Notes: generated from the letters alone by a model not told the origin. Counted from the whole stretch's first letter, positions 2,400 to 60,733 are shown. The stretch: DNA of 63,308 nucleotides, filler included, from Reclinomonas americana ATCC 50394 (GCA_048213135.1; 5 parts of 4 records of this genome joined end to end with filler, not necessarily neighbours in it), one strand, 5' to 3'. Translations and numbers: made by a program.

Positions 2400-2454
<55 letters not shown>

Positions 2455-5282
2455 NNNNNNNNNNNNNNNNNNNNNNNNNNNNNNNNNNNNNNNNNNNNNN
2501 NNNNNNNNNNNNNNNNNNNNNNNNNNNNNNNNNNNNNNNNNNNNNNNNNNNNNNNNNNNNNNNNNNNNNNNNNNNNNNNNNNNNNNNNNNNNNNNNNNNN
2601 NNNNNNNNNNNNNNNNNNNNNNNNNNNNNNNNNNNNNNNNNNNNNNNNNNNNNNNNNNNNNNNNNNNNNNNNNNNNNNNNNNNNNNNNNNNNNNNNNNNN
2701 NNNNNNNNNNNNNNNNNNNNNNNNNNNNNNNNNNNNNNNNNNNNNNNNNNNNNNNNNNNNNNNNNNNNNNNNNNNNNNNNNNNNNNNNNNNNNNNNNNNN
2801 NNNNNNNNNNNNNNNNNNNNNNNNNNNNNNNNNNNNNNNNNNNNNNNNNNNNNNNNNNNNNNNNNNNNNNNNNNNNNNNNNNNNNNNNNNNNNNCCCTGT
2901 CTCCCTGTCTCCCTCACTCATTCACTCACTCACTCACTGTCACTCACTCTCACTCACTTACACTCTCACTCGCTCACACACACCAGTATATTGCTGCTGC
3001 TGGTGTTCACCTTCCTTCTCTCCCCTTCTCCATCTCTGACTTACCTATCTCTGCCCACTCTCTCTCCCATCTGAGACAAGTCACCTGCTTATCATTTCCA
3101 CTCACTGCCTCTCTCTCTCTCTTTCTCTCTCTCTCTTCAGCATTCTGGCTCCGAAGCAACACGTTCTTTGAGCCACCCAAAGTGCAACCAAAGGCCAACG
3201 CGGTGCTATTGGTGGATATGGGACCGTCGGCGCCGTACACGCGCATGTGGAGCACGCATCCGGGGATTAATTCGCTCATTCCAGCCGCGCAGTTGTTGTC
3301 GCCGTCGTATTTGGTGAGCGAGAAGGAGGCAAAGGGAGAGAGGAAAGGGTGAGAGGCAGGGAGGGAGAGGGAGACTCTGCACGTGTGTTCTTTGCATGAC
3401 TCGCTGCACTCGCTTCCATATTTCAGAGACATAAGGTACTTTCTCTGCTAGGTTTGCAATCGTTTTTCCTCGTTTGCACTCGTTTCCTCTCGTTTGCACT
3501 CGTTTCCTCTCGATTTGCACTCGTTGCCTCTCGTTTGCGCTTTTTTCTCTCGTTTGCACTGGTTCCATCGCGCCTGCACTCGTTTCCTATCTTTTTTTTT
3601 GCACAAGTTTCCTCTCGTTTCCACTCGCTTCCTCTCGTGTACGCTTGTTTCTCTCGTTTATGCTTGGTCCATCGCGCTTGCTCTCGTTTCCTCCCGTTTG
3701 CACTCGTTGCCTCTCGCTTGCACTCGCTTCCTCTCGTTTTTTCTTGTCTCTGCTCGTGCTCTTTAGTCGAGCGCTGAGCATTGCAACCTGATAGGTCGAC
3801 ATATCGGTCGACAAACAAGGGTTGAAGGACAAGGGTTGAGGGTTGAAAAATGCAGGGTTGGGGGACAACGGTTGAGGGTTGAAAATGCTCACTCTCATCG
3901 CTTTCTGCTGCATGCTTCTCGTTTCGCCCTCCAGTGAGTACTTGACTCGTGATTCGTCATTTGTACATGCGTTGATGTCGATTGCGCTCTGTATCCATGG
4001 CGCCGATTCCCTATGTTTCTCGTGCAACCTCTCCGCCTTCCTTGTTCAGCCCGTGTTCGTGTCCTTTTTTGTCTGCCGCAGCACTCGTGCAGAGCTTGAT
4101 CTCCTATCCCTCCTACTGCTGTATGCTTCGCGTTATTTTGCAGTGCCAGCAAGCACTTGACACCTTACGCTCTCCCTCTTCGCGTGCCCGTTGAATGTCG
4201 ATGTCGCCCAATTCTCTACTTCTTTGTGTCTCACGCCTCTCTTGCATAGCGCTTCTGTGATTGCCTGCATCTCTCGAAGTCAGCTGCTGTCTCGCACTGT
4301 GTTCCCTTGATCTCCCATGCACTCTTCTCTGAGTTTCTTCTGTTGCGCTGCACATTACGCGCCGTTCACTGCTTGCCCCTATGCCTTTCTTCGTGATTGT
4401 TGCGGTCACGTCGCCACCTCCTTTCCTCTACATCTCCCCCTCTCTCACCCTTTCCCCCTCCCACCAGGTCTCCATCGAAGACGACGACCTCGACGGCCGC
4501 GCCTCCGCCCTTCGCTACCGCGTCCGCTTCGCCATCTCCTCCGCCAACCCCGTCTACTCATTCCGCCTCCTCAACTTTCTCCAATTCGACCTCGATCACC
4601 GTCTCGATCTGTCGATGGAGTCGCTGGTGTACTTTGAGGTCACACACAAATGTTTTCCGACCCCTCCCCCCTATTATTCTCCTCACCAGCCCCCCCACAC
4701 CCGCAGTCCTCCTCCGGTGTCCCCTTCACCAACCTCTACTGCGACGGCCAGCTGCAATTCCACCAGCGCGAACCCATCTCCATGGTCAATCCGGCGCGCA
4801 CCATCTACAACACCACCCTCTTCGATCCAACGCGCGTGACGTCGCTGGCCGAGATCGCCCCGCACAACATCCTACCGAATTACATGAGCCGCAACGAGAC
4901 CACGGCGCTCGAGGCGAAGCAGTGCTCGTGGAGTGCGGGAGTGGCGTCGGGGCAGTTTGTGTTTGAGGGGGTGGCGAGAATACCGAATGCGAGGGTGGAG
5001 TTGCGTCAGAGGGGGAAAACGAGGGGAAGGGAGGGCAAAGGAGGGAAAGGGAGGGAAAGGGGAAGGGAGAGGGTAAGAGAGAGAGGGAGGAGAGAGAGAA
5101 GGGATGTGAGAGAGTGATAAGGAGAGCAGGGAGTGTGTGTGAGAAGAGAATACCGAATGCGAGGGTGGAGTTGTGTGAGGGAGAAATAGGAGGGGAAGGG
5201 AGAGGAAGGGAGGGAAAAGAGAGGGAGTGGAAGGAGAAGGGCGGACGGAGTGAAAGGGGAAGGGAGAGAGAGGGAGGAGAGG

Positions 5283-5316
<34 letters not shown>

Positions 5317-5875
5317 GAGAGAGAGAGAGAGAGAGACAACAACNNNNNNNNNNNNNNNNNNNNNNNNNNNNNNNNNNNNNNNNNNNNTTAATTAATTAAN
5401 NNNNNNNNNNNNNNNNNNNNNNNNNNNNNNNNNNNNNNNNNNNTGAGAGACAACTCTTCTCCAGAGAGAATCCCAGAGAGCAAGGCAGTGACGCACACAA
5501 AGTGACAGACAGCAGGCCAGTGCTCACATTCGAATCGTGCTCTGTTGTCACCATGTCAGTCTCATCCTGTCAGTCTCCGTTGCCTTCATGTCCATCCTCA
5601 CCTCTCCCCCTCCCCCCTTCTCCCTTCCCCCCTTCCCCCTTTCCCCCTTTCCCCCTTTCCCCCCTTCCCCCCTTCCCCCCTCCCCCCCTTCCCCCTTCCC
5701 GCGCAGCTACGTCCCCGGCACCTGGGAGGCCATCAAAATGGCCTGGATCCAATACGTCTCCTTCATCCTCGTCATCGGGTGGATCTCGTTCTCGCTGGTG
5801 GGCCTGCTCGTGGTCAAGCGCATCCTGCCCACGCGGGTGATACGCGACTCCACACCCAAGCTGCATCAATTTTAG
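2258..5875 (+). CDS. TMEM231: Ciliary transition-zone transmembrane protein TMEM231
   Basis: Exons 2258-2387, 3141-3313, 4468-4638, 4707-4999 and 5707-5875 join in frame. They give an N-terminal TM helix then AFWLRSNTFFEPPKV, IEDDDLDGRAS, DGQLQFHQREP, YMSRNETT and YVPGTWEAIKMAWIQY plus a C-terminal TM helix, which is the TMEM231 family pattern. Confidence 0.88.
3454..3745. repeat. Degenerate 10/20-bp periodic repeat (CTCGTTTGCA/CTCGTTTCCT) in TMEM231 intron 2
   Basis: Repeated cgtttgcact/cgtttcctct units are directly visible. Confidence 0.85.
3817..3885. repeat. Cluster of (A)GGGTTG(A) telomere-like motifs
   Basis: About six agggttg/ggttga motifs in 70 bp. Confidence 0.55.
5344..5443. other. 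Artificial scaffold linker N44-TTAATTAATTAA-N44
   Basis: Six-frame-stop 12-mer at 5388-5399 embedded in Ns; the same construct occurs four times. Confidence 0.97.
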
Positions 5876-7276: not shown

Positions 7277-8198
7277 TCACGTGGAAACATCAATCACGGA
7301 GAAGAATCCCAGCTCCCGTCGCGCATGAGGCAGTGGCAACGGCTGCGGCACCGCACCACCATCCTCCTCGCCCTCCGCAGAAGAAGATGCCGGCCTGCCT
7401 GGACCCGATTGCATCACCACGCGAGATTCATGCATCTGATGATGCCCGGCCCCGTGCAGCGCCGACGATAATGACGACTCCTCCTCCTCATCATCGTCCT
7501 CCTCATCCGCATCCTCCTCATCCTCGTCAGTGAGCGTGGCCAGCGACGTGCGACTGGCACTCATCTCCACCGCCCGCTGCTTCCACGCCGCAGATGCACA
7601 CGATTCCTTCTCCAGCTCCGTCAACCACGCCTCCACGCGCTCACTCGCCGACACACGATGCCCCAATGTCCGCAAATACCTCCGCTTCAAAACAACTATA
7701 CAAAGGGCAATCAAATGAGCAAAACAATCACATTGTAGTCTCCAAGTGTGTGAGAGAGGGAGAAGGCGCGCAACTTGGAGGGGGAATGAGGTGATCCAGT
7801 GACACCGATGTGGGTAATGAGTAGGCCGAGGAGGTGTGCGACGAGGAGCAGGCCGAGGAGCGCGACATGGCATGAGCCATTGCGCCTTGTCCGGCGTGTT
7901 CTCCCACTGTTGCAGTCATGAGTCGCTGCTGCTGCTGCAGTGACGGGTGTTGCTGATGCAGAGAGTGAGCTGGCGCCGGTTGTTGTTGCAGCAGTGGCGA
8001 GTGGTGCACAGCAGTCGACTGCTGCAGCAGTTGTCGTCGCGACACTGCTGCAGCCACGACCATCATCATCACGTCGTCTTCCTCGTCATAGTCGTCGACT
8101 TGCTCCTCTTGCTTGTGATGGTGTTGTTGTGAGGTGGAAAAGGTGTCTGTTTTGGTCGTCGCGGAATGCACAAGTCGAGTGTCGTCGTCGTCGTCCAT
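7277..8198 (-). CDS. Orphan low-complexity (Q/H-rich, acidic) protein, two exons
   Basis: Exon 8198-7775 (MDDDDDTRLVHS...; an alternative ATG lies slightly upstream) joins in phase 1 through a GTTGCG donor at 7774 and a tatag acceptor to exon 7695-7277 (VLKRRYLRTLGHRVSASERVEAWLTELE...DEDEEDADEEDDDEEEE). No recognisable domain. Confidence 0.5.
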
Positions 8199-11100: not shown

Positions 11101-12852
11101 NNNNNNNNNNNNNNNNNNNNNNNNNNNNNNNNNNNNNNNNNNNNNNNNNNNNNNNNNNNNNNNNNNNNNNNNNNNNNNNNNNNNNNNNNNNNNNNNNNNN
11201 NNNNNNNNNNNNNNNNNNNNNNNNNNNNNNNNNNNNNNNNNNNNNNNNNNNNNNNNNNNNNNNNNNNNNNNNNNNNNNNNNNNNNNNNNNNNNNNNNNNN
11301 NNNNNNNNNNNNNNGAAAAAGGGGGGAAGGAAAAGGGGGAAGGAAAAGGGGGAAGAGGAATAGGAAAGGAGAAGGGGGAAGGGAAAGGGGGAAGGGAAAG
11401 GGGGAAGGAATAGGGGGAAAGAAAAGGGGAAGGAACAGGGGGAACGAATAGGGGGAGGGGGGAGAGGAATGGTATGTGCAGATCGAGGCGGAGTGTAACG
11501 AAAGAGGAACAGTGTGTATGTGTGCGTTATATGCAAGTGTGAGAGAGTGAAAGAGATAGTGATCGACACACCCACACATGTACAGAAGCAGACACACGGC
11601 TGTATCACGACATGAGCAGTAGAGTTTGGGCACAGCGACGTGACAAAGAGTGTATGTGTGTGCATGTGTGCGCGCGCGTGTGTGTGAGGGAGAGGAGACG
11701 AAGAAGAGAGAAATCGTTTCCTATCACTCCCATGCACCAACAAACCTTGCGATCAACCCAGAAGCTCCATGGGGTCTCCAACGGCTGCAGCAGAAGCAAG
11801 TAACGTCAGCATGTGATGTGGCACACAATAATCTCTCTCGCTCTTACGCCAACTGCAACATGCGTCAAGAAGTACGGTATCTCGCACACTGCTCTGCCGA
11901 GTTCACCAGCTCTTCTCTCACTTCCTCCTACTCCATCTCAGTCTCGCGACACTGCTGTGCACATACAGTTATCTCACACTACCTCTCTCTCCTCGCCCTC
12001 CCTTCTCCCCTCCCCCCACTACTCAACATGATGCGACGGATCAATCGGCGGCAACGATCCACGCGCCCGACTCGAGGCGGGTGAGAATGGCGACCCGGTG
12101 GCCGCGTTCAGTGCCGCCGACGACGAGTGCGCCAAGAATGACGTCGTCGTGGTTGTTGACGACGACGAGGAGGAGGCCGGCTTGGCGGGGGAGCTTGGAT
12201 TCGANNNNNNNNNNNNNNNNNNNNNNNNNNNNNNNNNNNNNNNNNNNNNNNNNNNNNNNNNNNNNNNNNNNNNNNNNNNNNNNNNNNNNNNNNNNNNNNN
12301 NNNNNNNNNNNNNNNNNNNNNNNNNNNNNNNNNNNNNNNNNNNNNNNNNNNNNNNNNNNNNNNNNNNNNNNNNNNNNNNNNNNNNNNNNNNNNNNNNNNN
12401 NNNNNNNNNNNNNNNNNNNNNNNNNNNNNNNNNNNNNNNNNNNNNNNNNNNNNNNNNNNNNNNNNNNNNNNNNNNNNNNNNNNNNNNNNNNNNNNNNNNN
12501 NNNNNNNNNNNNNNNNNNNNNNNNNNNNNNNNNNNNNNNNNNNNNNNNNNNNNNNNNNNNNNNNNNNNNNNNNNNNNNNNNNNNNNNNNNNNNNNNNNNN
12601 NNNNNNNNNNNNNNNNNNNNNNNNNNNNNNNNNNNNNNNNNNNNNNNNNNNNNNNNNNNNNNNNNNNNNNNNNNNNNNNNNNNNNNNNNNNNNNNNNNNN
12701 NNNNNNNNNNNNNNNNNNNNNNNNNNNNNNNNNNNNNNNNNNNNNNNNNNNNNNCCCCCGTCACCTTCCCCCTTCACCTTCCCCCTTCACCTTCCCCCTT
12801 CACCTTCCCCTTCTCCTTCCCCTTCCCCTTTCTCACTTTCCCTCCCACTCAG

Positions 12853-13619
12853 GGCCTCGACGCCCCCGGAGCCAGCGAACAACAAGTCATCTCCCTGCAA
12901 GAGGACCAAACCACCTACCTCGGCCACCTGCAGTGCCTCGGCACGTGCCAGACAGTGGAGAACTTCTGGAGGTACTCTCTCTCCTACCCATATCCATCCC
13001 CTCTCCTTTATCTCACCCTCCTCTACCAGCTTCTACACCCACCTGGTGCGCCCGTACGACCTGCCCCGCATGACCAACTTCCACTTTTTCCGCAACCAAG
13101 TACCGCCGGCGTGGGAGAGCTACCCCAGCGGCGGCTCGTGGATTGTCAAGATTCGCAAGGAGAGCGGCATGCTCGCCAGACTGTGGGAGAAGCTGGTGTG
13201 TGCTCATCTCTCCAGTCGTCTCTATCTCTCTTTGTCTCCTCACCCCTTCCCTGTTCAATGGCAGCTCTTCTCGGTGGTGGGCGAGAGCCTGGAGGAGCCC
13301 GACGTGGTCGGCGTGGTCCTCTCCATCCGACCAAAGGAGGACGTGATCAGCGTGTGGAACGCCGACACCAACAACCGCTTCCGCATCGCCGACAAGGTCA
13401 AACGCCTGCTGCGCATCGGACCCAACACGGTCATGGAGTACAAGACCAACCTCGCCGCCCTGCAAGATCACTCGTCATACCGCAACGCCAACAAGTTTAT
13501 CGTGCAGGCCAATGAGGTTTGCAGGAAGGGAAAGGCGGTGATGGGGGAGAGGGAGAGCGAGAGAAAGAGAAGAGAGGAACACAACACAGAGAGTTGAGCA
13601 GAAGACACCTAAGCCTTTG

Positions 13620-13657
<38 letters not shown>

Positions 13658-13889
13658 TTTGCCTTGATGGCTGTCTGCCTCGAAACCATGCATTGCCTGT
13701 TTCCGTTTCAGTTGATCGCATCGTTGGAGAGTTTGGGTCTCTCTCTCTAACACACACTCTCTCCCCTCGCATTCTTTCATTCTTTCTCACTTTGTGTCTT
13801 TCTCTGTGCTTGCTGTCTCAGACAGTCTTCTATACTCGCTCGTTGTCTGGCTGCACTCGTTCTAATTGGCTTACTTCTCTGCTTTCTTG

Positions 13890-13927
<38 letters not shown>

Positions 13928-15661: not shown

Positions 15662-18600
15662 TCATCTCGGTCTCTCCGACAGCACGCTCAGTTCCACCAC
15701 GTGCGACTCGCCGTCACAGCGTAATGTCAACTCGGCAAGTGTCGGTGCGCCCGTCGCGTTGGTGGGGCCGTCAAAGGAGACCGCCAGGTCGGCGGATTCG
15801 TCCTGCGAGCGACGAGGGTGAGAGGAGGTAGAGGGAGAGACAAGCAGGTAACAGATAATCTACCTCTTCGTTTCCTCTCTCTCTTCTTCTCCTTCAATTT
15901 CAGAACTTATCTTGCACATTCCAAGCCTCTCTTCTCTCCCTCTCTGTATTTATGCTCTGCTCTTCCGAGTTTCTCTCCATCGGTCCCTATTCCACAATCC
16001 TGCTTTTGAATTCGCCATCTCCCCAGCAGCACACTTGTCTGAACTCTCTCACTCGCCACTTTTCACTGTCTTGAGTGTGACTGTGTTCCACAATCCAGTG
16101 ACGCTTATATCTGCAGTCAGTCTCACTGCCTGAAGACGCAAATAAAGAATCGCACAATTGCTGCTTCCTCACAAGTATCTCTTACCGCTCGTGCAGCTAA
16201 GACAAGAAACACTTGCTTGAGTTCCCACTTCCTCTTCCCCTCTCTTTCTCATCACTCGCAGAATTACTACAGAACATTGTACTCGATTCATGAGCAGACT
16301 CTGAGACTGTGCACACACACAATCACACACACACACACAACGCGAGAAAGAGAGATCGATCATGCAACAAATCTCAAATACCAAACCCCTCTCTCTCTCC
16401 TTCTTCTCACCCTCCGGCATTCGTCGATGCAAACTGTTCTGCGCATGCCTCACGATGGCGCTCAAGGTGCGTATTCGCTTACGAGACACACGCACAGACA
16501 TACACACACTGGACCAGTGCATAACTCCCACGCATTCAGTGAGACTCGCGTGCGTCACAAGCTTCTCTCTCACACAAACATGCACACACCGAACACAAGC
16601 ACGCAAACTACTCCTTCTCTTTCCCTTTCCCCTTTCACCCCCTCCCTTCCCCTTACTACCCCTTCCCCTTTACCCCTTCCCCCCTGGGCGCTCACCGGCT
16701 GCAACAACCCCTCCTCCGCAACCTTGAACCTCCGATCATTACACGAGGCACGCCAGTGCAACGGTGTGTCGCCCACATTGGTCAGCAGCAGCAAGTCCCG
16801 CGACTGCGCGCCCACAAAGTACAGACTCTGCGAGCCCAAATGCAAACTCTGTGTGCACGCCTCGCCTGCTCGTGAAGTGAGCGACAAATCACAGACACGC
16901 CCACACGCGCGAGTGCACAAACTCACCAAAGAGGCGCACCGAGTCCGTGTGCTCACTCTGCGTAACGGGGCTCACGTGGCGCACCTGCAGCGTGCGCACC
17001 ACCGGTCCCAGATGCTGGTGCGTGGGCATGAATACCACCGGCAGCATCACATACGATCGCGGACGAATCTCCACCGATGCGTGGCGCACGCGGAACGGCG
17101 GTCCAGGCGCCACAATGTCCACTCGCGCCGCGGTGGAACACGGATTGCAAATCGGCAGCTTCGCCGTCCGCCGACCACCGACCTTGGTGCGCGGGAACGT
17201 CAACTGATCGTCGCGCACATACACGGCATCGCGCGGTTTGCCACTGCCGCGACGCTGCGACAAGATGCTGCCGCCGCCTGTGGTGCCACCATTGGTGGAG
17301 GTGTAGGTGCCGGTTTCCGAAGGCACGCCCTCGTCTTGCGGGTGGTTGTCGGCGGCGTCGAACTGAGGAGATAGAGAGAGAGAGGTGAGCAAAGTGGAGG
17401 ACTGAGCTTTTGGAGACATGGAATCACCTTCCCGCCCAACGCATATCTCGTCTTTGGCATGTGCGACTCCACCCGCGACGACGATCGGTGTGGCGGCGTT
17501 CCTTCTCCGGTCGGATGCGACACGCCCATTGACAGCTGCACGAGAACAATGAGCAGATAGGAAATTGATCAACATGTCGTCGCTATCTCGTTTTGTTGCT
17601 GTTCTTCGTGTGCTCCATTTTCTACCTCAGCATCGTTCTCCTCTTCCGGCCTCTATTTTTATCTCCTTCTTCCTCTACTTCTACTCATTCTTCGCGTCCA
17701 TTATCTTCCCTTTTTCTCGCAAATCCCCAAATCCTCCTCATCTTTTTCTTTATCGTCGTTGTATTCTTCTTGTTGCTTTTTATCTATTTCTCGTTCTTCT
17801 GCTTCTCCTTCAGTAACCACCCTCTTTCTTCCCGCTCCCTCTCGGTCCCATTCATCCCTCTCTCCCTTCACATTCTTACTCCCCTCCTCCCTTCTCCTTT
17901 CCGTCTCCTTCTCCTCTACTTCACCCTTCCCCTCATTCGCGCACCATTCTCGGCGGCTCACTGGACACCGCCCCTGGCGGCCTGTTGTGCTCCGGCGGCA
18001 CCAAATCCCCACGCATGCTGACCTGCACCTGCTTGCTGTGCTCGACACTCTCAAACACGAAATACTGCGTGTACGACACCACGCCCGTGCCAATCGCCGT
18101 CTCCGGCCCCGCCGCCGTGTCCTCGATCGGCGGGCAGAACTCCACGTCCACCTCCACCGTGCGGCGAGGGGCGACCTTGCCGCGCAGCAGCGCAAAGCGG
18201 AACACGCTGCCAATGTCGTCGGAGAGCGTGGTCACCTTGCCCTGCCAATGCATCACCAGTAAGTGGGCTGGTGGAGAAGGGACAGTGTCTCCTTGGCAAA
18301 GGGAACGCACATCAGCCAGTGTCCGGAGAACGCGCGTGGATGGCTGCAGGGTCCACGAAAGCTCGCGCTTGAACGACACATTGTCGATGCTGAGTCGCGA
18401 GCTCACGTACGCGCCACCACCACGCACTCGCCGTTGCAGTTGCAAGTGCAGGTGCTTGGTGCGCAGCAGCAGAGGTGCGTGTCCGGAGCCCACATTGAAC
18501 ACTTCACCGTGGCCGGCCTTTTCGCGCAGCAGTGCCTCGGCGTCCGCCTGCGCCGACGGAGAGATCGGGCGGTCGGCGGAGGGTGTCTTTTTCGGCGTGC

Positions 18601-21600
18601 TCAACATGCGCTTGTCGTCGCCCGGTGAGCCTGAGTGCGTGCAGCAAGTGTGTGTGAGAGAGAAGAGGAGAGATGAAGTGAGAGAGAAGGAGAGATGGAG
18701 ACTGAGAAGGAGAGAGATACGGAGAGATGGAGTAAGAAGGAGACATGAAAGAGAAGGAGACATGGAGAGAGAGAGAGAGAATGAGTGACAAAGAGAGATA
18801 GGGAGAAAAAGAGACATGGTGACAGTGATAAGAGAGAAGGGAGAGAGAAAAGGAGAGATAGAGTGCGAGAAGCCGAGAGATGGAGTGAGAGAAAAGGAGA
18901 AATGGGAGAGAGAGACGGAGAGATGGAGTGCGAAGGAGACATGAGAGTAGGAGACATGGAGAGAGAAGGTCAAAAAAGTGGGAGAAGGAGAGATTGACAG
19001 CGAGTTGGAGAGAGAGAGGAAACAAACTCTAGAATCGCAACACTCAAAACTCACTCACACAGACAACAGAGAGAAAGAAGAAGACACACTTTAAGAGAGA
19101 GAAGGAGACATGGAGAGAGAACAGGGAAGGACAGATTGAGAGAGAAGGAGAGAAAGAGAGAGGAAACAGACACTGCATATCGAAAATCGCAAAACTCATA
19201 ACTCTCTCTCTCTCTCACACAGACGGAGACAAGAAGACACGCTATTACGAGAGAGGGATAGAGAGAGTTGGAGAGAGAGAGAGGAAACAACACTGCAAAT
19301 CGAATATCGCAACACTGAGATGAAACAGCCTTACGAGAGAGAGAAGGAGAGACGGCGAGAAAGCGAAGAGAGATGAAAAACACTGCATATCAAATATCAC
19401 AACACTCATAACTCTCTCATAGGCAAGGAGAAAAGAAGACACACGTACGAGAGAGAGACAGAGAGAGAGAGAGAAGGAGAGAAAGAGAGAGAGAGAGAGA
19501 CAGGAAACAAACGCTGCATATCGATATCGCAACACTCATGACTCTCTTACTCTTCCAAGGGCATATCACTCACCAGATCGCCCACGACGACTGGGCTCGA
19601 ATGGCATCACTGGTGGCGGTGGTGCCACCGAGCGAGGTGAGCTTCGCGGCGACGCCGAGAACGGTTTGATCACCACTGGAATAAGCAGCGGAGGCACCGT
19701 GCCGAGTTCCTGCGGCTGGATGCTGATCGATGTTTCCACTCGCTCAGGAGTCGCCGCCGTGCTGGCAATCAGTGCCTCCGCAGCCGACACGGTCTGCGAG
19801 GAATATGAGCACCAGGAGATTTGCTCTCAAAGCAAGAGGGGAAACGCAACATGCAGCTGCGACTGGCCCGGGCGCAGAGTGCCAGTCGGTGCGGAGACAA
19901 TCAGTCGGGACAGGGGGAACAGAATCTCGTATGCCACGCTCAGGTTCGAGCTGTGATTGTGCACCACCAAGTGCTCTGTCAGAGGAAGGGTGAGTGATGG
20001 GAGAGGCAACAAGCACTCGTCTCTGCCTCTCTTACCAAGACGGTGCTGTGAGTGCAGCTCGATCGTGGCCGGATGCACGCTAAACACTGGATGCGACAAG
20101 TGTCTGTAGCCATCGGTCGACAGCACAGGCGTCGGACCAGGAGCCGGAGGTGGAGATGTTGCGACAATGGCTGGTGGAGAACGATCGAGAGCGGCCGAGA
20201 GCGTGTGCGGTGGGGATGACCTCTGCTCACATGAATGCTTCAGCACATCAAGGACGAGAGAGAAACAAGAGACACTTTGTGCGCACCTCCTCGCCAATCA
20301 CCACCTGCACTGGCACCTCCACTCTCCGCAGGCTCTCCGTAAACACCTCGGCATCGTAGAATGTGTCAAATGCCGTTTCCGCCTGTGCTCACAGTTGAGC
20401 GAGGAAGCAGTGCGCTTGAAAATGGGAAAGAGAACATACCGTGCTGAGTGTTGGATCGTTGTATTCGGTGTCTTCGTAGTCGAATGCCGGGACAGCGTTC
20501 TGTGCCAGCGCGTCGTCGAACACATCGAAGGAGAGCACTTGCGTGTCGGAGGCCACGGCGCCTGCAACGAAGAGGGAAGGGAACAAACAGAAGTAAGATG
20601 AGAGTTACGCGTTTCTCCTTCTGAATGCGGGAGAGAGAGAGAAGAGAAAGAAGACAGAGAGACACAGANNNNNNNNNNNNNNNNNNNNCAGAGAGAAAGA
20701 GAGAAAGTGAGTCAGAGAGTCGAATCACTGTTGCAGAATAGAGCGTGGAACAAGGCGATGAATTCCTGCAAGAACTGGAGAGAAATATTCAACTAACTGA
20801 GCATGCATCAAAAAGAAGGGATGTCACTGCGAGTTGGAGAGAGAAGAGAAGATGAGAGAACATTTAATCACTTACGCAGGATAGATTGTGGGTGAAGAGC
20901 GAATTATGGAGAATGATAGCAGACTGCATGCATGGCAATTCGATTTGTGAGAGAAAAAGAAAGATGAGATCGAGTGAGATGGTCGAATCACAAAGGATGG
21001 ATTGTGCAAGATGGTTTCTGAAAGAAGAGAAGAGACCCGAAGGATTTCTGAGCATGCAGAGACATTGCAACAAAATGGAAGAAGAGAAAGACGAGAGAGG
21101 AGAGAAGGAGGAATCTCCTTTCACATATAGTGTGCGAGAACGTGCTGAAGACGGGAGAACGAAAGAACTCGGAGATAATGCAATGAAAATAGAAGAAGGA
21201 TGGCATCACAATTTGAGAGAGAACAGAAAGATGAGAGAGACAGTCGAATCGCATTCAGGGCAAAGTTTGCATGTCATGTAGAAGACGAGAGAAACGCAGA
21301 GAACGATTGAAACATGTTAGAAGAGAGGGTGCGATGAGGTTGATCTCACAAGCTGAACGTCGCTGATTCTTTACAAAAGGACGAGAGTAAACTTGGAGAC
21401 AGAATGAGAGACCTTGCAGAAATGACACATCAAATTAAAAGGCTGACGATTCAGCGACAAGTGAAATCAACATCCTCCAACCAATCTCAGTCATGACGCT
21501 CCAGCTCACTCTATTGTTCTCCTCAGCAACACTCACAAGGCTCTCCATTCCCCCTTCCCCTTATTCCCCCTTCCCCTTCTTCTCCCCTTCTCCGCCCTTC

Positions 21601-24600
21601 TCCTTTTTACGCACCTGGCACCCCTGACCCCAACTGCATCTGCAGCGCACGAATCTTGTGCTTCCTTCTCCTCTGCCGCAAAAACTCCTCGCCAAACTCC
21701 AACACCAGCGTCACCGCGCGCCGTCCACTCGCCGGATCGCCGACCCGATGGTGCACCGTCACCAGCACCTCCTGCTCGCCACCCGACGCCCCCAACAGGA
21801 AGAATTCCGGCCGCACCGTCACCCCTCCATCCGCACAATACGCCCGCACAAACGCCATGCGACTGCCGTGGTTGACGGCGCGCGTGCACAGCTGCGCCTC
21901 GCCACCCGGCGGCACACGCAACACCAGCACCGACGAGTCGGCGGCCGAGCTCTCCCGTCGCACCTGCAGCGCCACCTGCGCCGTGCCGGCCCAGGCCAGC
22001 AGTGGGATCTTGAAAATGGTCTGCGGATCGGTCTGCAGCAGCAGTGCGGACCGGTGCGCCAAGGCACGGGTGGGCGTGCGCTGCAGCGTCGGCCGGAAGC
22101 GCACCTCCACACGCGTGCTCTCCCCGGGCGCCAGATGCACCACGGGCGACGTGGCAATGTCGAACACACGCGGCACGCCACTGGCCGGGTGCGGCGGTGG
22201 GGCGACGGACACGTCGATGCTGCACGAGCGGTAGGCGCTGTTGTTGGACACTATCACCGACTCGGTCTTGGTCTCGCCGTGCGCCACCGCCGAGAAGTTG
22301 ACCACGGGTCGGTCGCAGATGATTGTCGGCGCCTCCTCCACCTCGGCCAGCACGGGGATGGAGTAGCGTGAGTGCGCGGTGCGCAGGGTCAGGGTGCCGT
22401 TGATCTGCCGGTGGGGAAGGAGGGGGAAAGAGGGGGAAGGGAGTTAGCAGGGAGAAGGAGGGGGTAAGAGGGGGAAGGGAGTTAGCAGGGAGAAGGAAAA
22501 GGGGAAGAGAGGGAAGGAGAAGAGACGGAAGGAGAAGAGACGGAAGGAGAAGAGAGGGAAGAAGAAGAGACGGAAGAAGAGAGAGAAGGAGAAGAGACGG
22601 AAGGAGAAGAGAGGGAAGAAAAAAGACGGAAGAAGAGAGAGAAGGAGAAGAGACGGAAGGAGAAGAGAGGGAAGAAGAAGAGACGGAAGAAGAGACGGAA
22701 GGAGAAGAGACGGAAGGAGAAGAGATGGAAGGAGAAGAGACGGAAGGAGAAGAGATGGAANNNNNNNNNNNNNNNNNNNNNNNNNNNNNNNNNNNNNNNN
22801 NNNNNNNNNNNNNNNNNNNNNNNNNNNNNNNNNNNNNNNNNNNNNNNNNNNNNNNNNNNNNNNNNNNNNNNNNNNNNNNNNNNNNNNNNNNNNNNNNNNN
22901 NNNNNNNNNNNNNNNNNNNNNNNNNNNNNNNNNNNNNNNNNNNNNNNNNNNNNNNNNNNNNNNNNNNNNNNNNNNNNNNNNNNNNNNNNNNNNNNNNNNN
23001 NNNNNNNNNNNNNNNNNNNNNNNNNNNNNNNNNNNNNNNNNNNNNNNNNNNNNNNNNNNNNNNNNNNNNNNNNNNNNNNNNNNNNNNNNNNNNNNNNNNN
23101 NNNNNNNNNNNNNNNNNNNNNNNNNNNNNNNNNNNNNNNNNNNNNNNNNNNNNNNNNNNNNNNNNNNNNNNNNNNNNNNNNNNNNNNNNNNNNNNNNNNN
23201 NNNNNNNNNNNNNNNNNNNNNNNNNNNNNNNNNNNNNNNNNNNNNNNNNNNNNNNNNNNNNNNNNNNNNNNNNNNNNNNNNNNNNNNNNNNNNNNNNNNN
23301 NNNNNNNNNNNNNNNNNNNNNNNNNNNNNNNNNNNNNNNNNNNNNNNNNNNNNNNNNNNNNNNNNNNNNNNNNNNNNNNNNNNNNNNNNNNNNNNNNNNN
23401 NNNNNNNNNNNNNNNNNNNNNNNNNNNNNNNNNNNNNNNNNNNNNNNNNNNNNNNNNNNNNNNNNNNNNAGAGAGAGAGAGAGAAACAGAGAGAGAGAGA
23501 AGGGGAAGGAGAAGGGGGAAGGAGAAGAGAGGGAAGGAGAAGAGGCGGAAGGACAAGAGACGGAAGGAGAAGGGAGAAGGGAGTTAGCAGGGAGAAGGTT
23601 GACGCTCATTGTCAGTTTCTTTCACCTTCAAGATATCTCTCTCCCCTCTCTCGCTCCATGATTGCTCACTCTAGCTCCGGAGAAGCGAATTGCACATTTG
23701 CACTCTCACAAACAATCTGTCTCAATTGTTGCGCTCTGTCTCATCACTTCGCTCACTCATTCCTGACTCTTCCTCTGTGATGAGTCTGCGTTACATTCAT
23801 CTCATTCTACTTCTTGCCTCCGACAGCAGTTGTATTGTCGGAAGAGAGAAAGAGACAGAAGAAGACGAGGAGAGGCGAAGAGAAACATAGCAGCTGCACT
23901 TCTTCGCTAAATAAGTCTCACTCTCACTGTCCATCGCTCTTCCCCTCGCTCTCATGAGTCATCCCATTACTCGTCCCAGTCCCTTCACTTTTCCCCCTCA
24001 CTCTTACCCTTCACACTTCACTCCTGCAACACTCTTTCCGATCTCCCTTCTCATCACTTCCCTTCGTCCCCATAATTCTTCCCCGCCTCGCTCGATTCTT
24101 CAACTTTCTCGCCGCTCTTCCATGTCACCGTTCCTCTCATTCTTTCCTTTTCCCTTCACTTTTTCCTTCCTCTTCTCCTCACACTGTCTTTAATTTGCTC
24201 CCTTTGCTCTTTCCCTTCTCTCATATCCTCGCTCTCTCCCTTCCCCCTTGATTCCCACTCTTCCCTTTCCCTTCACTTTTCCTTACCCTTCTCCTCACAC
24301 TGTCTTTCACTTGCTCCCTTTGCTCTTCCCCTTCTCATATTCTCCTCGCTCTCTCCCTTCCCCCTCCGTCTCTCTCATTATCCTTCCCTGCCCTTCCCCT
24401 TCTTCCCTTCCCTTCTCTCCTTCCTCCCTCTCGTCCTTCCCCTCTCTCCACCCACCTTTCCGGTCCTCTGCGGCGTGAATCGCAGCTGCACGGTGACCAC
24501 ATCCTTTGGTGGCACGCGCACCCGCTCCGGGAACTGCAGCTCCACACAATCGCTGTCAAACTCCACATCCAGCGGCAGATTGCCGGCATTCCTCAACGGC

Positions 24601-25437
24601 AACGGCGTGAGACTCGTCTGTCCGAGCACCGCATTGTTGAAAAAGAGCGCCTGGCAGTGCTTCGGAATCTGCAGACGACCACGTCCCGACGATGCCAGCA
24701 GCTCCACTCGTTGCTCCAGCTGCTGCTCGGTCGGCGCCGATTCGTCGGCCAAAAAGTCGGTCCACGGCAGCACCGAAACGTGTGCGTGCACCACGTCGGC
24801 TGCTTGCATGACGTGTGGGTGCGCCGGGCGTCGATACTCAATGGCCACGCGTGTTGGCATCTCGGAGTTGACCGGCAGCACAATAGAGCGAGGATCTATT
24901 GACAGAGAATGGTGAGAAAGGGTGTGAGGCAACGCCTTGATGGGAATGGCGACGCACCTGCGGGTTGTGGAACATTTTCGTGCGCACTGTCGAGGTAAAT
25001 GTGGAATGGTGGCTCGGTGGAACCTGCACAATGACGAGTTTGTCAGCAATAGAGCCACAACATAAGCATCCATGTCCACCACACCATGCGCCACAAGGGT
25101 GGCCATCAGCAACAGTGGAGCCGCAGTCTTGTTCCACACTCGGAATGTCTGCAACACTGGTCCGTCGGCCACCAGCGACTGTGGTGTGCCACTGAAAATC
25201 AAGTCCGCCGAGTCAACCTGCATGTGCGCAAGTGAGACAACCTTGCACCGCATCAAGAGAGAGAGAGACAGAGAGAGACAGAGAGAGACAGAGAGAGACA
25301 GAGAGAGAGAGAGAGACAGAGAGACAGAGAGATAGAGAGATAGAGAGACAGAGAGAGAGACAGAGAGAGAGAGAGACAGAGAGACACAAAGAGACACAGA
25401 GAGACACAGAGAGAGAGAGACACGGAGAGAGAGAGAC

Positions 25438-25468
<31 letters not shown>

Positions 25469-52971: not shown

Positions 52972-53036
52972 CTGCGTGAGACGAATTCAGAAGACATGAA
53001 CAAACGAGAATGGACCCCTCGCATTCTCTCGTTTCC

Positions 53037-53136
53037 NNNNNNNNNNNNNNNNNNNNNNNNNNNNNNNNNNNNNNNNNNNNTTAATTAATTAANNNNNNNN
53101 NNNNNNNNNNNNNNNNNNNNNNNNNNNNNNNNNNNN
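53037..53136. other. Artificial scaffold linker N44-TTAATTAATTAA-N44
   Basis: 12-mer at 53081-53092; it truncates both the ankyrin gene and the radical SAM gene. Confidence 0.97.
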
Positions 53137-53184
53137 TTTAGAGAAAGACACCGCGAGCACGAAACAAGAGCATCTCCATCTCAC

Positions 53185-55081
53185 CTGGCATTCTGGCTCT
53201 GCGCGGACAGTGTGTGAGCAGCAGAAGCAGGATGTACAAAAATTAGGTATTGACGAGGGATCACACCTGCTGCTATAGCTAGTGATATCCGCTGCTGCCG
53301 CGGTGGTTGTGCGTGGCGCAGCGATGATGACTGTGCCGTCAAGTGATCGAGCACGTTGGCCACTTGCCACTGGTCCTTCCATCGCGCCCTCTGCGAGGCC
53401 GTCTTGCCCTTCTTGTCCACAAGGAGAATGAGGTCGGGGTGGCGAGTGGCGAGGAGTCGCACAACATCAATGTGGCCATTTGCTGCNNNNNNNNNNNNNN
53501 NNNNNNNNNNNNNNNNNNNNNNNNNNNNNNNNNNNNNNNNNNNNNNNNNNNNNNNNNNNNNNNNNNNNNNNNNNNNNNNNNNNNNNNNNNNNNNNNNNNN
53601 NNNNNNNNNNNNNNNNNNNNNNNNNNNNNNNNNNNNNNNNNNNNNNNNNNNNNNNNNNNNNNNNNNNNNNNNNNNNNNNNNNNNNNNNNNNNNNNNNNNN
53701 NNNNNNNNNNNNNNNNNNNNNNNNNNNNNNNNNNNNNNNNNNNNNNNNNNNNNNNNNNNNNNNNNNNNNNNNNNNNNNNNNNNNNNNNNNNNNNNNNNNN
53801 NNNNNNNNNNNNNNNNNNNNNNNNNNNNNNNNNNNNNNNNNNNNNNNNNNNNNNNNNNNNNNNNNNNNNNNNNNNNNNNNNNNNNNNNNNNNNNNNNNNN
53901 NNNNNNNNNNNNNNNNNNNNNNNNNNNNNNNNNNNNNNNNNNNNNNNNNNNNNGGCAATATGCAAGGTAGTGGATTGGCCATCAGTGACTGCCCGCACCA
54001 TTGCCGGCGGGCAGCGTTGCTCCTCGGCAAGCAACCATTCCACCACCTCCACTTGCCCATTGAAGGACGCTTCCATCAGCGGGGTTACGCGATTATCAGT
54101 GACCGCGAGTGCAAGTTGTGGCCCGACGCCGCTCTCCGCCCACAAGTACTGCAACACAGCGAGATGGCCACCGGAAGCGGCATTGGAGAAAGCCGTACCA
54201 CCACCACTGTCCATCTCATCTCTCCTCAACAGACTGTCCGCGCCCTCACGTGCCACCAACTCGCGCAGTGCCTCCACATTGCCACTCGCCGCCATCTCCC
54301 ATGCCCGCATCCTTTGCTGTTGCCTGTGATATAAACAGAACGGGAACACCGCTGTCAGCAAACAAAAAACAGGTGACAGACCTTGACAAACACACCTCGG
54401 TTGTTCTGGATAACGAGAGAGGTGTGAGCAGGGCAAGCAAAGCATGAAAAAAGCACAACACGCACCCAGCGGCGCAGCCAGGCGATCGAGCAACTCAGCC
54501 ACTTGCTCCTTGCCATTCGAGCGTGCCGTCTGCGCCGCCGTCTTGCCCTCCTTATCGGTCATCGCAATGAGATCCGGGTAACAGGAGGCAAGAAGAAAGA
54601 CAATGACTTCGTGGCCTTCGTCGGCCGCACAGTGCAGTGCAGTGGACTGTGGAAAGTCGTCGCCGTCATTCGAGACAATGCGCACCATCTCCGGCGGACA
54701 CCGTCGCTCATCGTCGAGCAACCACTCCACCACATGCAAGTGTCCATTGTAGGCGGCCTCCATCAGAGGCGACCATCCGTGCATGTCGACCATTTGTGCG
54801 AGTTGTGGCCCGACTCCACTCTCCTCCCACAGATACTCCAACACCGACAAGTGGCCGCGTTCAACAGCACAGCAGAATGCAGAGTTGCCGTACTTGTTCA
54901 TCTCCTCTCTCCTCAGCAGAGTGTGGGCGCCCTCGCGTGCCACCAACTCGCGCAGTGCCTGCACATTGCCCTCAGCTGCCATCTCCCATGCTTTCTTCTT
55001 CCTCTTGCGACGAGAACTGCGCGCGGGACAAAGAAGTGGATGTGTGAGAGTGTTGATGATAAACGCAGTGGTGTGCCTCAT
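53185..55081 (-). CDS. Ankyrin-module gene (paralogue of 1-1672) with two tandem ankyrin cassettes; 3' part cut by the linker
   Basis: ATGAG 55081-55077, cassette 55016-54466, cassette 54323-53267 (interrupted by a gap) and a 14-nt micro-exon 53198-53185 homologous to 915-902. Confidence 0.82.
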
Positions 55082-56223
55082 GCTTTGCTGAAGATGTCGA
55101 TGGAGTGGGCAGCTCTCTCTCTCTCTCTCTCACGCGTTTAGTTGTTTTTCCGAGCGCAGGACAACTTTTCTGTGTTTCGACGTCGACGACGAGGAAGAAG
55201 AAGGGAAGAGGATAAAGTAGGAGCAGGAGGAGGAAGACTTGGATATCCACAGGCGGCGGCGCATGGTGGGGAGGATTTGCGATCGCGAGGAGGTCCTGGT
55301 GACGCAAGGTGCGCGAGCTCGACACGTGGAGTCTGCAACGGTGCGAGGTTATAAACTTGGCGGGCATTAGATAAATCTGATCTGCGCGCTCTCAAAAACT
55401 GTCTACTCTGCGTGCTGCGAGTGAGAACGAGAGAGATTCTCCGATGGATGCAGCNNNNNNNNNNNNNNNNNNNNNNNNNNNNNNNNNNNNNNNNNNNNNN
55501 NNNNNNNNNNNNNNNNNNNNNNNNNNNNNNNNNNNNNNNNNNNNNNNNNNNNNNNNNNNNNNNNNNNNNNNNNNNNNNNNNNNNNNNNNNNNNNNNNNNN
55601 NNNNNNNNNNNNNNNNNNNNNNNNNNNNNNNNNNNNNNNNNNNNNNNNNNNNNNNNNNNNNNNNNNNNNNNNNNNNNNNNNNNNNNNNNNNNNNNNNNNN
55701 NNNNNNNNNNNNNNNNNNNNNNNNNNNNNNNNNNNNNNNNNNNNNNNNNNNNNNNNNNNNNNNNNNNNNNNNNNNNNNNNNNNNNNNNNNNNNNNNNNNN
55801 NNNNNNNNNNNNNNNNNNNNNNNNNNNNNNNNNNNNNNNNNNNNNNNNNNNNNNNNNNNNNNNNNNNNNNNNNNNNNNNNNNNNNNNNNNNNNNNNNNNN
55901 NNNNNNNNNNNNNNNNNNNNNNNNNNNNNNNNNNNNNNNNNNNNNNNNNNNNNNNNNNNNNNNNNNNNNNNNNNNNNNNNNNNNNNNNNNNNNNNNNNNN
56001 NNNNNNNNNNGGACAGATCAATATCGATTTGCTGAAAGGTTTTCTTCGCTTTCTCTCGCCGCTGTCACGCAAAAAAGCGAGGCGTTCTTGGATTTCTAAG
56101 CATCCACAGTGTGCACTGCAATCGTGAATTCCGATTTTCGATATCATGCACCCTGGCCAATTACAAATCACTCGTTGCTCGCGCGACAGTTGTGATAACG
56201 CCACACTCAGTGTTGCACGCGCA

Positions 56224-56826: not shown

Positions 56827-56926
56827 NNNNNNNNNNNNNNNNNNNNNNNNNNNNNNNNNNNNNNNNNNNNTTAATTAATTAANNNNNNNNNNNNNNNNNN
56901 NNNNNNNNNNNNNNNNNNNNNNNNNN
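56827..56926. other. Artificial scaffold linker N44-TTAATTAATTAA-N44
   Basis: 12-mer at 56871-56882. Confidence 0.97.
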
Positions 56927-57000
56927 GAGAGAGAGAGGGAGAGAGAGAGTGCATGACGAAGAGAAGCCAGAAAATGAGTGGCCTCGGAACGCAGACCAGA

Positions 57001-58523
57001 TCAAAATACGTAAGGAGCGCAAGACACGGCAAAGGGCGCAGGAAGAGCTTGGAAAGAAAGTGAACTCATCCTTGGATAGAAAGAGAGGGCGAGAGGAACA
57101 TTCCCCCTCTTGCCCCCCTTGCACAAATTTCTCTCCACTTACATTCGCATCCCACTCCTTCTCCTCCTCCTTCCTCCTAATCTCACCGCTTGGCCATTCC
57201 CAACTGCGCGCGCTGGAAATACGCCTTGCGAATCGGCAGCACCGACATGGTGTCCTCGGTCCACGCCACCACCGCCTCATGCACTGCCTGCGACAGCTCT
57301 TCGTGAATCGCCGCCGCCTTTTCCTGATCCGGCAGCGCGGCCGCCGGGTCGGCAGGACCGCCACCCTTCTTGGCGGCGGCGGCCTTGGGGTCTGCCGGGC
57401 CCGGGTAGTACTTGTTCTGCAGTCGTTCCCGTGCCGCCTCGATTTCGTCGACGCGGGCGACCAGCAACCGGCGGCTGTGCGAGGGGGAAAGGGGAGAAGG
57501 GAAAGGGAATAGAGGGGAGGGAAAGGGAAGAGGGAAGAGGGAATAGAGGAAAGGGAGAGGGAATAAAGGGAAGGGAAAAGGGAAAGAGGGAAGAGGGAAG
57601 GGAGAGGAAAAGGGAAGGGAACGGGAATAGAGGAAAGGGAGAGGGGAAAGAGGGAAGGGGAGAGAGGTAAGGGAAGAGAAAAAGAAAGAGATGAGGACAC
57701 AGAAGAGATGAGAGAGAAGTGAAGGAAATAACAGAGAAGAGAGAGAGATAGAAAGCACGAGGGAGAGAAAGCAAAAGAGAGAGAGAGGGGGAAAGCAAGA
57801 GAGAGAGAGAGAGAAGGAAAGCAACAGTGAGAAAGCAAGAGAGAGAAGTGAAGAGAGAAAAGAAAGATGAAGTGATGAGGAGATGACGAATGATTACAAG
57901 AAAGAAAGAGAGCATTGAAACGAGAAACGAAGGGAGAAAATGAATGAGGACAAGAGCACAGAGCGAAACGAAGGTAAAAGAACAACGAGAGAGGAGATGA
58001 CGAGCCAGAGAAGAAAGCAGAAAAGGGCATCATGGACAAGAGAGAGAAACACAAACACACAGAGGGGGGGGGAGAGAATACAATGAGTCACACAGCCTCC
58101 ATGCCAACACAAACGACAAGCAGAAGAGACGCAACACGACAGCGAGCGAATTGGCCTCGTGCACAATCGTCGGCATGCGCGACGACGGTCCCTCTTGTGA
58201 GCGATTGAGCAAGTTGCTGGCGGCACGGTGCATTGAGGTGCTCGAGGTTCCGTGCGGTGTCTTGGCGCCACTAGGCAGCTTGCGACTGTGGACAAGAAGA
58301 GTGAGACAAGAGTGCGCACAAGATAAAACCCGATGCAGCTGCACGCAACAGACTGCCCATCGACTTCCACGGTGTCATCATCACGCCAGTGGAACGCTGC
58401 GTCGGCGTCCGTGCGCCCGAGCGCATTCCGTCGCCAGAGCTCGACGTGTGCGGCAACCGACTGCTCGAGCCGCCGCGTGGGGAAATGGGGGCGGAGATGG
58501 ACACGGTGCGAGCGCGTTCCTTC
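57001..58523 (-). CDS. Exons of unknown function, possibly the C-terminal extension of the GST-like gene
   Basis: Phase-consistent exons of about 58523-58350, 58286-58136 and 57475-57188 (RRLLVARVDEIEAARERLQNKYYPG...IHEELSQAVHEAVVAWTEDT) and a probable short last exon ending at 57001. Confidence 0.6.
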
Positions 58524-59329: not shown

Positions 59330-59412
<83 letters not shown>

Positions 59413-59640
59413 GCATGACTTGCGATACGTGACGTCTGGCATCCTATTTGCACTCTGCCATGGGCGTCTGCTGTCTCCAGTCGATGTATGTTTTGTTTTC
59501 GTACACCTCCCGTTCCACCCTGTCTTTCCTCTCTCTTTCCCTTTTCCCCATCATCCCTTTCCTCTTCATGTTCACTTTACTTTTTTCATTTCTATCTTGT
59601 CTTCCCTTCCCCCTCTCCTTCTCCCTTATCTCCCCTCTCC

Positions 59641-60733
59641 CTACTTCACTGGCAACTTCTTCCTCCCACTCGCAAACTTCTCCGTGAAGCTCACGAGAAA
59701 GTCCTCGTACGTGGCGCACTCGGCGGGCAGCAGCTGCAGCATCGTCTGCTGCACGCGCTCCTCCTTGCGCGCAAACGCCAGGTAGCGGCGCAGCATCAGC
59801 AGCGAGTCGTCGCCGTCGACCTCGCCGAGGGCCTTGAAGCCACGATGCGCGCGCAGCACAATGTCGATGCGCAGCAGGAACGGCAGCACGGCGGCGTCGA
59901 GCAGGGTGAATGTGCCGCACATGAGCCAGGGCGAGAAGGCCTCGCTCGTCTGCCGCTCCGCCAGCTCGTGGCGCGACATTTCGCTCTCGCCACTCAGGCT
60001 GCTCCACGAGGTGTTGATGGTCTCCTGGAATTCGCGCAGCAACTTGAGCAGGCGGTCCGCGCCGTGGCTCTGCTCCGTGGCCTCTTGCGAGGTCAGCATC
60101 GCGGCCATCACGGGGACGATCTTGGTGTCGAACTGAGGTGGAGGAGGGTGAGTGTAGGGAGGTGAGGGGATTCTCATGCGCAGGACGACGCAACGAAGCA
60201 AATGAGCTGGCGAATCAGGGCGCGCATAATGGGATTGTCGCGCACGGGCATCAGCGGGGTGGCGGAGGAGGAGGCCATGGACTCGCAGAGGCACGCCAGC
60301 TCGTCGATGAGCTCGTTGATGACGAGCGACTCGGAGATCTGCATACACGAGAGAGAGGGCGCGGTGAGAGGGAATCTCGAATCTCTCGCAGGAAGAATAC
60401 GCGCGCAACGTTGTGCAGGCCGTCGAAAAAGTCGGGCACCTGCTCGTGCGGGTTGAGCATGCGGAGCCAGCGCGGCTTGTTGTCGAGGTCGATGGAGGCG
60501 AGCTTGTAGCGCAGGGTGCCGCGGAAGATGAGGGCCAGCCAGACGCGCTGGCAGAAGGGGCAGGCCGGGGAGATGACCACGAGGGGCTCCTCGCGGGAGG
60601 CCAGTTTGTGGATGTCCATGGAGAGGGTGGAGCCGAGGGGGAGGATGGTGGCGCCGGGGGAGGAGGAGGAGGGGGAGGTGGAGGAGGAGGAGGCGGAGGA
60701 GGTGGTGGTCGGGGGGTGACTGATGGCGGACAT
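59641..60733 (-). CDS. Glutathione S-transferase-like protein, omega/DHAR-type with a CPFC motif
   Basis: CPFCQRVWLAL...IDLDNKPRWLRMLNPHEQVP...ISESLVINELIDE and the C-domain PWLMCGTFTLLDAAVLPFLLR. Exons 60733-60410, about 60338-60195 and about 60133-59641; it may instead splice onward. Confidence 0.85.

Follow-up and report, generated by a model that had tools for sequence, protein, structure and literature searches.

GTTGCG(T/C) as a candidate second class of 5′ splice sites in GT-AG introns of Reclinomonas americana

Exons in a 63,308-nucleotide stretch of DNA from Reclinomonas americana ATCC 50394 (GCA_048213135.1; five parts of four records joined end to end with filler, hereafter the window) repeatedly appear to end before the word GTTGCG, continued by T or C. 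Judged from the sequence, GTTGCG(T/C) may represent a second, discrete class of 5′ splice site that is most likely recognised by pairing offset by one base, the introns being of the ordinary GT-AG kind in other respects; this interpretation is put forward tentatively, with slightly more doubt than trust. The class would comprise about 10 of the about 73 introns in the window, distributed over at least six genes. It was first proposed in a model's reading of the DNA, made from the sequence alone (the sequence-only reading), which placed such donors at 12 sites (Table 1).

All results derive from the window itself, from comparison with Pfam and PDB, and from a small home-made gene parser. The window contains 22 runs of N and has a G+C content of about 56 % outside them. 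Pfam was searched with 389 stop-to-stop frames of at least 75 residues. The parser combines a three-periodic coding model, trained on Pfam-supported stretches, with a Markov model of non-coding DNA and a learned matrix for acceptors. It was run in a donor-neutral mode, requiring of a donor only GT, or GC at a penalty, and further with a donor matrix of the main class only and with a two-class donor model, the latter yielding the best parse. High G+C content at third codon positions marked exons well in the GST gene and failed to do so in most other genes.

GTTGCG was found at all 12 sites on the strands assigned by the sequence-only reading. Its further description of the word was likewise accurate: ten sites continue with T and two (7774 and 60409) with C, and no site carries G at exon position -1 (a, a, t, a, t, a, a, c, t, t, c and c), A being the commonest base there (5/12). 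The heptamer GTTGCGT occurs 18 times on both strands, compared to 6.1 (order-1) or 7.2 (order-2 Markov model) expected occurrences. All 21 one-mismatch neighbours are close to their expected counts (observed/expected, e.g., ATTGCGT 3/5.5, CTTGCGT 10/12.5, TTTGCGT 5/8.5, GATGCGT 3/8.6, GCTGCGT 8/7.3 and GTTGAGT 6/5.3), and the first G and T are therefore no less fixed than the other bases. Within zones of assigned gene orientation, GTTGCGT is distributed 16:1 between sense and antisense strand, a bias not shared by the ordinary donor hexamers GTGAGT (20:30) and GTGCGT (23:32) in the same zones. On these grounds the word appears as a real, strand-specific signal of exon ends.

Use of the word as intron start was apparent even where the parser had no knowledge of it. 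The donor-neutral parse comprised 70 introns and selected GTTGCG at 5 of 26 sense sites, while GT sites as a whole were taken at 66 of 3598 (binomial P ~1e-4); this usage is of the same order as that of GTGAGC (6/39). Across donor-neutral runs, six of the 12 sites were picked exactly (19850, 38059, 43114, 58135, 58349 and 60194). A boundary score calculated without donor model had a median of 43.6 for the 26 GTTGCG sites, versus 14.8 for other GT sites (n = 600; Mann-Whitney P 0.004) and 17.0 for GTG[AC]G sites (n = 257). In the two-class parse, 73 introns were predicted, nine of which start with GTTGCG, 13 with GTGAG and five with GTGCG. Independent position frequencies of the ordinary class (0.16 x 0.07 x 0.19 x 0.10) predict 2e-4 per donor, i.e. 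about 0.02 occurrences in 73 introns versus the nine seen. The frequency given in the sequence-only reading, 12 of roughly 75 donors placed by eye, is borne out by 9/73 in the best parse and site 5000 added by Pfam (about 10 of about 73), and about 9 of its 12 sites hold up, the other three being weak. GTTGCG and ordinary donors occur together within single genes and share common 3′ signals. Among the ordinary donors common to two parses (n = 45, a noisy set), T is the commonest base at -2 (18/45) and G at -1 (26/45), so that ordinary donors of this set read TG|GT, not the textbook AG|GT.

Table 1. GTTGCG sites, introns starting at them and genes assigned in the window (empty cells: no value given)
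Feature	Word	Position	Strand	Phase	Length (bases)	Remarks
TMEM231 intron	GTTGCGT	5000..5706	+	2	707	spans two gap linkers; Pfam collinear; acceptor CGCAG, 18.5 bits
Candidate intron, gene without known family	GTTGCGC	7696..7774	-	1	79	weak
CEP192-like intron	GTTGCGT	19794..19850	-	0	57	well supported
End of PP2C homology	GTTGCGT	38053..38059	-			weak; acceptor not located
Kelch intron	GTTGCGT	41072..41147	+	0	76	chosen in two-class parse
Kelch intron	GTTGCGT	43114..43341	+	2	228	moderate
Candidate intron	GTTGCGT	44693..44751	+		59	weak; follows an optional 66-base in-frame exon
Intron	GTTGCGT	44838..44905	+	2	68	acceptor 14.3 bits; downstream coding 45.4; chosen in two-class parse
Intron, gene without known family	GTTGCGT	57475..58135	-	2	661	donor-neutral parse
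Intron, same gene as 58135	GTTGCGT	58286..58349	-	2	64	donor-neutral parse
GST/DHAR-like intron 2	GTTGCGT	60133..60194	-	0	62	chosen by every parse
GST/DHAR-like intron 1	GTTGCGC	60339..60409	-	0	71	
Extra candidate donor	GTTGCGT	34124..34130	-			402-codon open frame ends 4 codons past; intron would enter gap 33378-33997
Extra candidate donor	GTTGCGT	46687..46693	+			upstream coding 40.4; read-through stop after 14 codons; acceptor ambiguous
Ankyrin gene		924-1733	-			Pfam
TMEM231 gene		2003-5872	+			Pfam
eIF4E gene		12755-13594	+			Pfam
CEP192-like gene		16892-25478	-			Pfam
PP2C gene		38050-38795	-			Pfam
Kelch gene		from 40273	+			Pfam
SLC35F gene		48092-50640	-			Pfam
Ankyrin gene		53954-55129	-			Pfam
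GST/DHAR-like gene		59644-60733	-			Pfam
Ankyrin, two genes		61533-63306	+			Pfam

Eight sites (5000, 19850, 41072, 44838, 58135, 58349, 60194 and 60409) were graded as well supported and one (43114) as moderate. The phase-2 join at 5000, suggested by the sequence-only reading for TMEM231, is corroborated by the TM231 profile, position 256 of which falls at 4997 and position 257 at about 5705; the donor preferred here by the parser, 4961, is excluded by the Pfam alignment. Site 19850 was selected in the donor-neutral, main-class-only and two-class parses and has a good acceptor, coding scores of 36.0 upstream and 32.6 downstream, and a stop after 7 codons upon read-through. At 41072, the next exon (41148-41279) aligns from position 6 of the Kelch_1 profile, the start of the motif being carried by the upstream exon. 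Coding sequence on both sides and acceptors of 8.0 to 17.9 bits characterise 44838, 58135, 58349, 60194 and 60409. At 58135 the acceptor scores 17.9 bits, with coding scores of 27.7 upstream and 44.5 downstream; at 58349 it scores 13.1 bits, and a CTCAC motif is located 20 bases from the 3′ end. Read-through at 60194 meets a stop after 6 codons, and the predicted intron is the sole good frame-compatible pairing. GST_N homology reaches the exon end at 60409, the next exon opening with the motif ISES, and the PDB matches of the GST exons are DHAR and omega-class GST chains. For 43114, Kelch homology of the upstream exon and an acceptor of 12.7 bits are combined with a moderate downstream coding score (21.8); one donor-neutral run and the two-class parse picked this site, another donor-neutral run and the main-class-only parse picked 43168 instead.

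Sites 7774, 38059 and 44693 were graded as weak. The acceptor paired with 7774 is poor (3.1 bits; total 30.3), and the parsers chose 7805 instead. Site 44693 is frame-compatible, was chosen by no parse and lies inside an intron (44568-44751) of the two-class parse. At 38059, the Pfam alignment of PP2C ends at 38062 with profile position 226 of 255 and read-through meets a stop three codons past the site, where a donor is needed nearby; GTGAAT, five bases on, is an equally good rival donor, and no downstream exon that would complete the domain was found in 37396-38060 (-), up to a gap of 20 N at 37376-37395. A donor at the second GT (GTTGC|GT) was rejected in general, being five bases off frame relative to homology-fixed acceptors and followed by no consensus; only at 38059 can it be entertained.

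Beyond these 12 sites, two extra candidate donors were recognised (Table 1), and the sense copies of GTTGCGT at 21922, 30965 and 43682 are exonic. A further copy at 50138 was dismissed as 13th donor, SLC35F homology running on in frame to a GTGAGT donor at 49989. The region 50040-50210 (-) of the same gene, including GTGCGT at 50208 and GTTGCGT at 50138, encodes about 40 residues beyond the homologues between two conserved blocks and may hide an in-frame intron. The GTTGCGA copies at 19041, 19313 and 19533 (-) are located within three dispersed repeats of about 45 bases with GAGTGTTGCGAT in a long CEP192 intron and are not donors. Inside the TMEM231 intron, the last 22 exon bases and first 4 donor bases (4978-5003) are repeated 170 bases on at 5148-5173 (+), the copy continuing with GTTGTGTGAGG and the original with GTTGCGTCAGAG; this represents either a small exon-intron duplication or an assembly effect.

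The GTTGCG introns range from 57 to 707 bases in length. In line with the sequence-only reading, according to which they share nothing further, the interiors of the six short introns compared had a mean pairwise score of -7.4, compared to -9.3 (sd 4.8) for shuffles, and a maximum of 5 versus 8. No matching inverted terminus was found before the acceptors. Their tails display pyrimidine tracts and CAG, with CTCAC, CTCAT or CTTAC 16-34 bases from the 3′ end in 6 of 10 introns; ordinary GTGAG and GTGCG introns carry like signals (CTCAC/CTCAT-like branch motif, pyrimidine tract, CAG). Shuffle-like interiors and ordinary tails argue against both an introner family and U12-type introns. The latter are likewise a minority class with a fixed 5′ word of their own; however, the U12 5′ word and branch motif are absent here, and pyrimidine tracts and CTCAC/CTCAT are present. 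Since the 3′ half is the same as in ordinary introns, the same spliceosome would remove both. Taken together, word excess, strand bias, use in the parses and unlike interiors favour the proposal that these 5′ splice sites form a class of their own, genuine and frequent, and no introner family.

The sequence-only reading proposed that this lineage routinely uses a shifted or bulged U1 register, perhaps through a variant U1 or U6 small nuclear RNA (snRNA). In the offset reading, the intron would start at the first G of GTTGCG, and TGCGT at +3 to +7 would stand in for the TGCGT of G|GTGCGT donors (+2 to +6). The intron +1 G would take the slot in which the exon -1 G normally pairs, and later steps would be left with a single GU to cut at, located one base upstream of where the first pairing points. 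The string relation is exact (GT+TGCGT versus G+GTGCGT), TGCGT or TGCGC is found at +3 to +7 of 12/12 sites, and the bases at +7 (T 10/12, C 2/12) parallel the T/C at the ordinary +6. The lack of -1 G (0/12 versus 0.55 in the ordinary class; 0.45^12 = 7e-5) fits a one-base shift because the intron +1 G fills the -1 slot, and it disfavours a simple bulge at +3, which would leave exon pairing intact. The word could also be read as GT-T-GCGT, i.e. GTGCGT with one bulged U and the usual downstream pairing restored, as in the bulge +2/+3 register sites of Roca et al. (2012, as described in PMC4856993); such a bulge should, in contrast to what is found, keep -1 G favoured.

Several observations weigh against the offset reading. 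GTTGAG is neither enriched (31 versus about 34 expected) nor used as donor in any parse, despite the top rank of GTGAG among ordinary donors (13/73), so that a general shift of the ordinary consensus is not seen. GTGCGT, from which the sequence-only reading derived the motif as the locally common donor, does not rank first in the best parse: GTGCG (5/73) is rarer than GTGAG, and the GTTGCG donors (9) outnumber this supposed parent. An A at +5 should be better suited than the invariant C to pairing with the standard U1 5′ end. Support is weak at three of the 12 sites, as described above. The parser is noisy, many of its ordinary donors (GTC and GTT ones) being doubtful, and the gene orientation zones, assigned by Pfam matches or by the parser where no family was recognised, are partly assumed.

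Such specificity for C at +5 would sit better with a partner tailored to the word than with a plain shift. An alternative judged unlikely, yet the most serious one, reads the sites as real N|GTTGCG donors recognised in normal register by a dedicated partner, i.e. a second U1-like snRNA complementary to GUUGCGU or a sequence-specific protein, comparable to U11 at minor introns. Seven nearly invariant positions with one-mismatch neighbours at expectation, the invariant +5 C with GTTGAG unused despite the dominance of GTGAG, and an abundance equal to that of any one ordinary hexamer all agree with such a partner. It does not, however, predict the missing -1 G, and the GTTGCG introns do not differ from the ordinary class in branch and 3′ signals. 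Moreover, we know of no precedent in which a second U1 handles a large part of the GT-AG introns. A like idea was raised for Ostreococcus lucimarinus, for whose two intron classes (GTGCGTG and GTRNGT donors) separate snRNAs or protein sets were considered (Irimia and Roy 2008, PMC2483917). The two organisms are alike in having two kinds of 5′ splice sites, one of them atypical (GTGCGTG in Ostreococcus), in one genome; according to the same account, the Ostreococcus classes are split by chromosome and differ in branch signal, whereas in R. americana both kinds are mixed in single genes with common 3′ signals.

GC-AG introns starting three bases on (GTT|GCGT or GTT|GCGC), with exons ending in GTT and proteins one residue longer, are a rather improbable alternative that was overlooked in the sequence-only reading, although GCG follows GTT and the frame is kept at 12/12 sites. 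The main-class-only parse itself took GTT|GCGT at 58346 and 58132, under this reading the two GTTGCGC sites have the donor GCGCGC, i.e. GTGCGC with GC in place of GT, and T is fairly common at both -2 and -1 in the ordinary class. Homology leans slightly in either direction: the lengths of TM231 and Kelch_1 come one residue nearer to the profile under the GT reading, and the spacing from VP to the acid-Ser motif, compared to that of DHAR sequences, would rather suit the extra residue of the GC reading. A difference of one residue between the GT and GC readings is beyond what homology can settle, and homology confirms no GC donor in the window. The GC reading requires an invariant GTT at exon -3 to -1, with T at -1 in 12/12 sites instead of a G-ending word, and ATTGCGT, CTTGCGT and TTTGCGT are not enriched. 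Scored with the ordinary matrix including the charge for GC, the sites reach only -1.5 to -6.7 bits. Elsewhere GC donors need a stronger match to the consensus, which is missing here, and GT-AG is by far the commoner intron type among eukaryotes. We infer that a cut at N|GT is favoured over GTT|GC because the word is as constant in its first G and T as it is elsewhere, because the ten GCGT sites share nothing past GCG, and because exons of all three phases that invariably end in GTT would be, to our knowledge, without precedent. A comparable pair of cuts, three bases apart and differing by one residue, is formed by the STAT3 delta-3 tandem donors, for which the account in PMC11162779 proposes non-canonical U1/U6 registers; there the pair is GU-GU, whereas the second candidate here is GC.

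It is improbable, more so than the GC-AG reading, that most sites are no splice sites at all and that the sense-strand enrichment reflects an exonic or intronic regulatory motif, on which by-eye placement and parser locked. The three weak sites, at least three exonic sense copies (21922, 30965 and 43682), the copy in open frame at 50138 and in-frame alternatives near each site would be in keeping with this view. The alternatives are, however, poor donors: among in-frame GT or GC positions within 45 bases, the ordinary-class median of 2.05 bits is reached at only 2/12 sites (41072 at -33 and 58135 at +21). For 60409, the alternative at -30 (1.9 bits) would remove VP, a conserved motif of the GST fold, other in-frame rivals being GCGCGC at +3 and GTATTC at +9. 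Furthermore, the donor-neutral parse found five sites without knowing the word, Pfam homology is collinear across 5000, and 19850, 58349, 60194 and 44838 are followed by short introns with read-through stops and strong acceptors. Least probable is a relic of an introner-like, intron-creating mobile element of which only the splice-bearing tip was kept, for although the same heptamer opens introns of unrelated genes and the lack of -1 G preference would be expected of insertion sites that were no proto-splice sites, the shuffle-like interiors, the wide range of lengths and the missing inverted terminus speak against it, such a tip would drift to the ordinary consensus unless splicing needed the word, and the literature search yielded no paper combining GTTGCG with introners.

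In mammals, shifted-register sites are uncommon and diverse. For human sites, both the shifted and the bulged U1 register have been proven (Tan et al. 2016, PMC4856993), and mammalian 5′ splice sites of shifted register were reported by Roca and Krainer (2009, as described in PMC4856993). In the features described there, these sites resemble the GTTGCG class: a GT donor with T at +3, downstream bases corresponding to the consensus displaced by one, a dispensable -1 G and a cut at GU. The class differs in that one heptamer makes up about 12-14 % of the donors in the window, in that the middle base is always C with no GTTGAG counterpart, and in that pairing and cut are here predicted from sequence. 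A limited literature search found no paper linking GTTGCG to a donor class.

Several other features of the window were noted. Four gaps (5344-5443, 28771-28870, 53037-53136 and 56827-56926) consist of 44 N, TTAATTAATTAA and 44 N; they are artificial linkers of the scaffolding, carry stop codons in every frame and are devoid of biological meaning. The neighbouring ankyrin genes have nearly identical N-terminal starts (61581-61883 and 62680-62823, +), which looks like a recent tandem duplication. In the eIF4E gene, the Pfam match covers 138 residues over 121 profile positions, and the parser places a 69-base in-frame intron free of stops at 13196-13264 (+). Rfam returned 0 matches to the window at gathering score; at E up to 1, the 18 sub-threshold matches in the window (17 microRNA-like, 1 snoRNA-like) included no spliceosomal snRNA. 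Sub-threshold matches to microRNA families cluster on both strands of 13520-13671, where (GA)n pairs with (CT)n (fold z-score -3.1); the cluster lies within an eIF4E intron and is an artefact of low complexity. A search for SLC35F homologues gave 334 matches, the top identity among the best 120 of these 334 being 58 %. The CEP192 exon had 27 matches among 1.84 billion representatives, the best full-length one being 29 % identical and fragments 48-55 %. Searches of longer proteins with GST exon 3 and with the TMEM231 exon gave no match.

The case is evenly balanced that this lineage possesses two parallel modes of 5′ recognition for major-type introns, one for GTGAG/GTGCG and one for GUUGCGU serving about 1 in 7 introns, the latter operating via a routinely one-base-shifted register or via a dedicated U1-like snRNA. 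Gene finders based on a single donor matrix would then misplace about 1 in 7 introns in this genome, as the main-class-only parse did. A dedicated snRNA, or a GC-AG class with exons ending in GTT, would be just as unusual as a shifted register. If the lineage does possess two such modes, this would be the first large, discrete donor class of non-canonical register built into a genome. Under a shifted or bulged register, the determinants of the cut site after U1 binding (U6, U5, Prp8, U1C) would become open to comparative genomics. A type of site known as a rare mammalian exception would then be a standard part of the splice code in R. americana.

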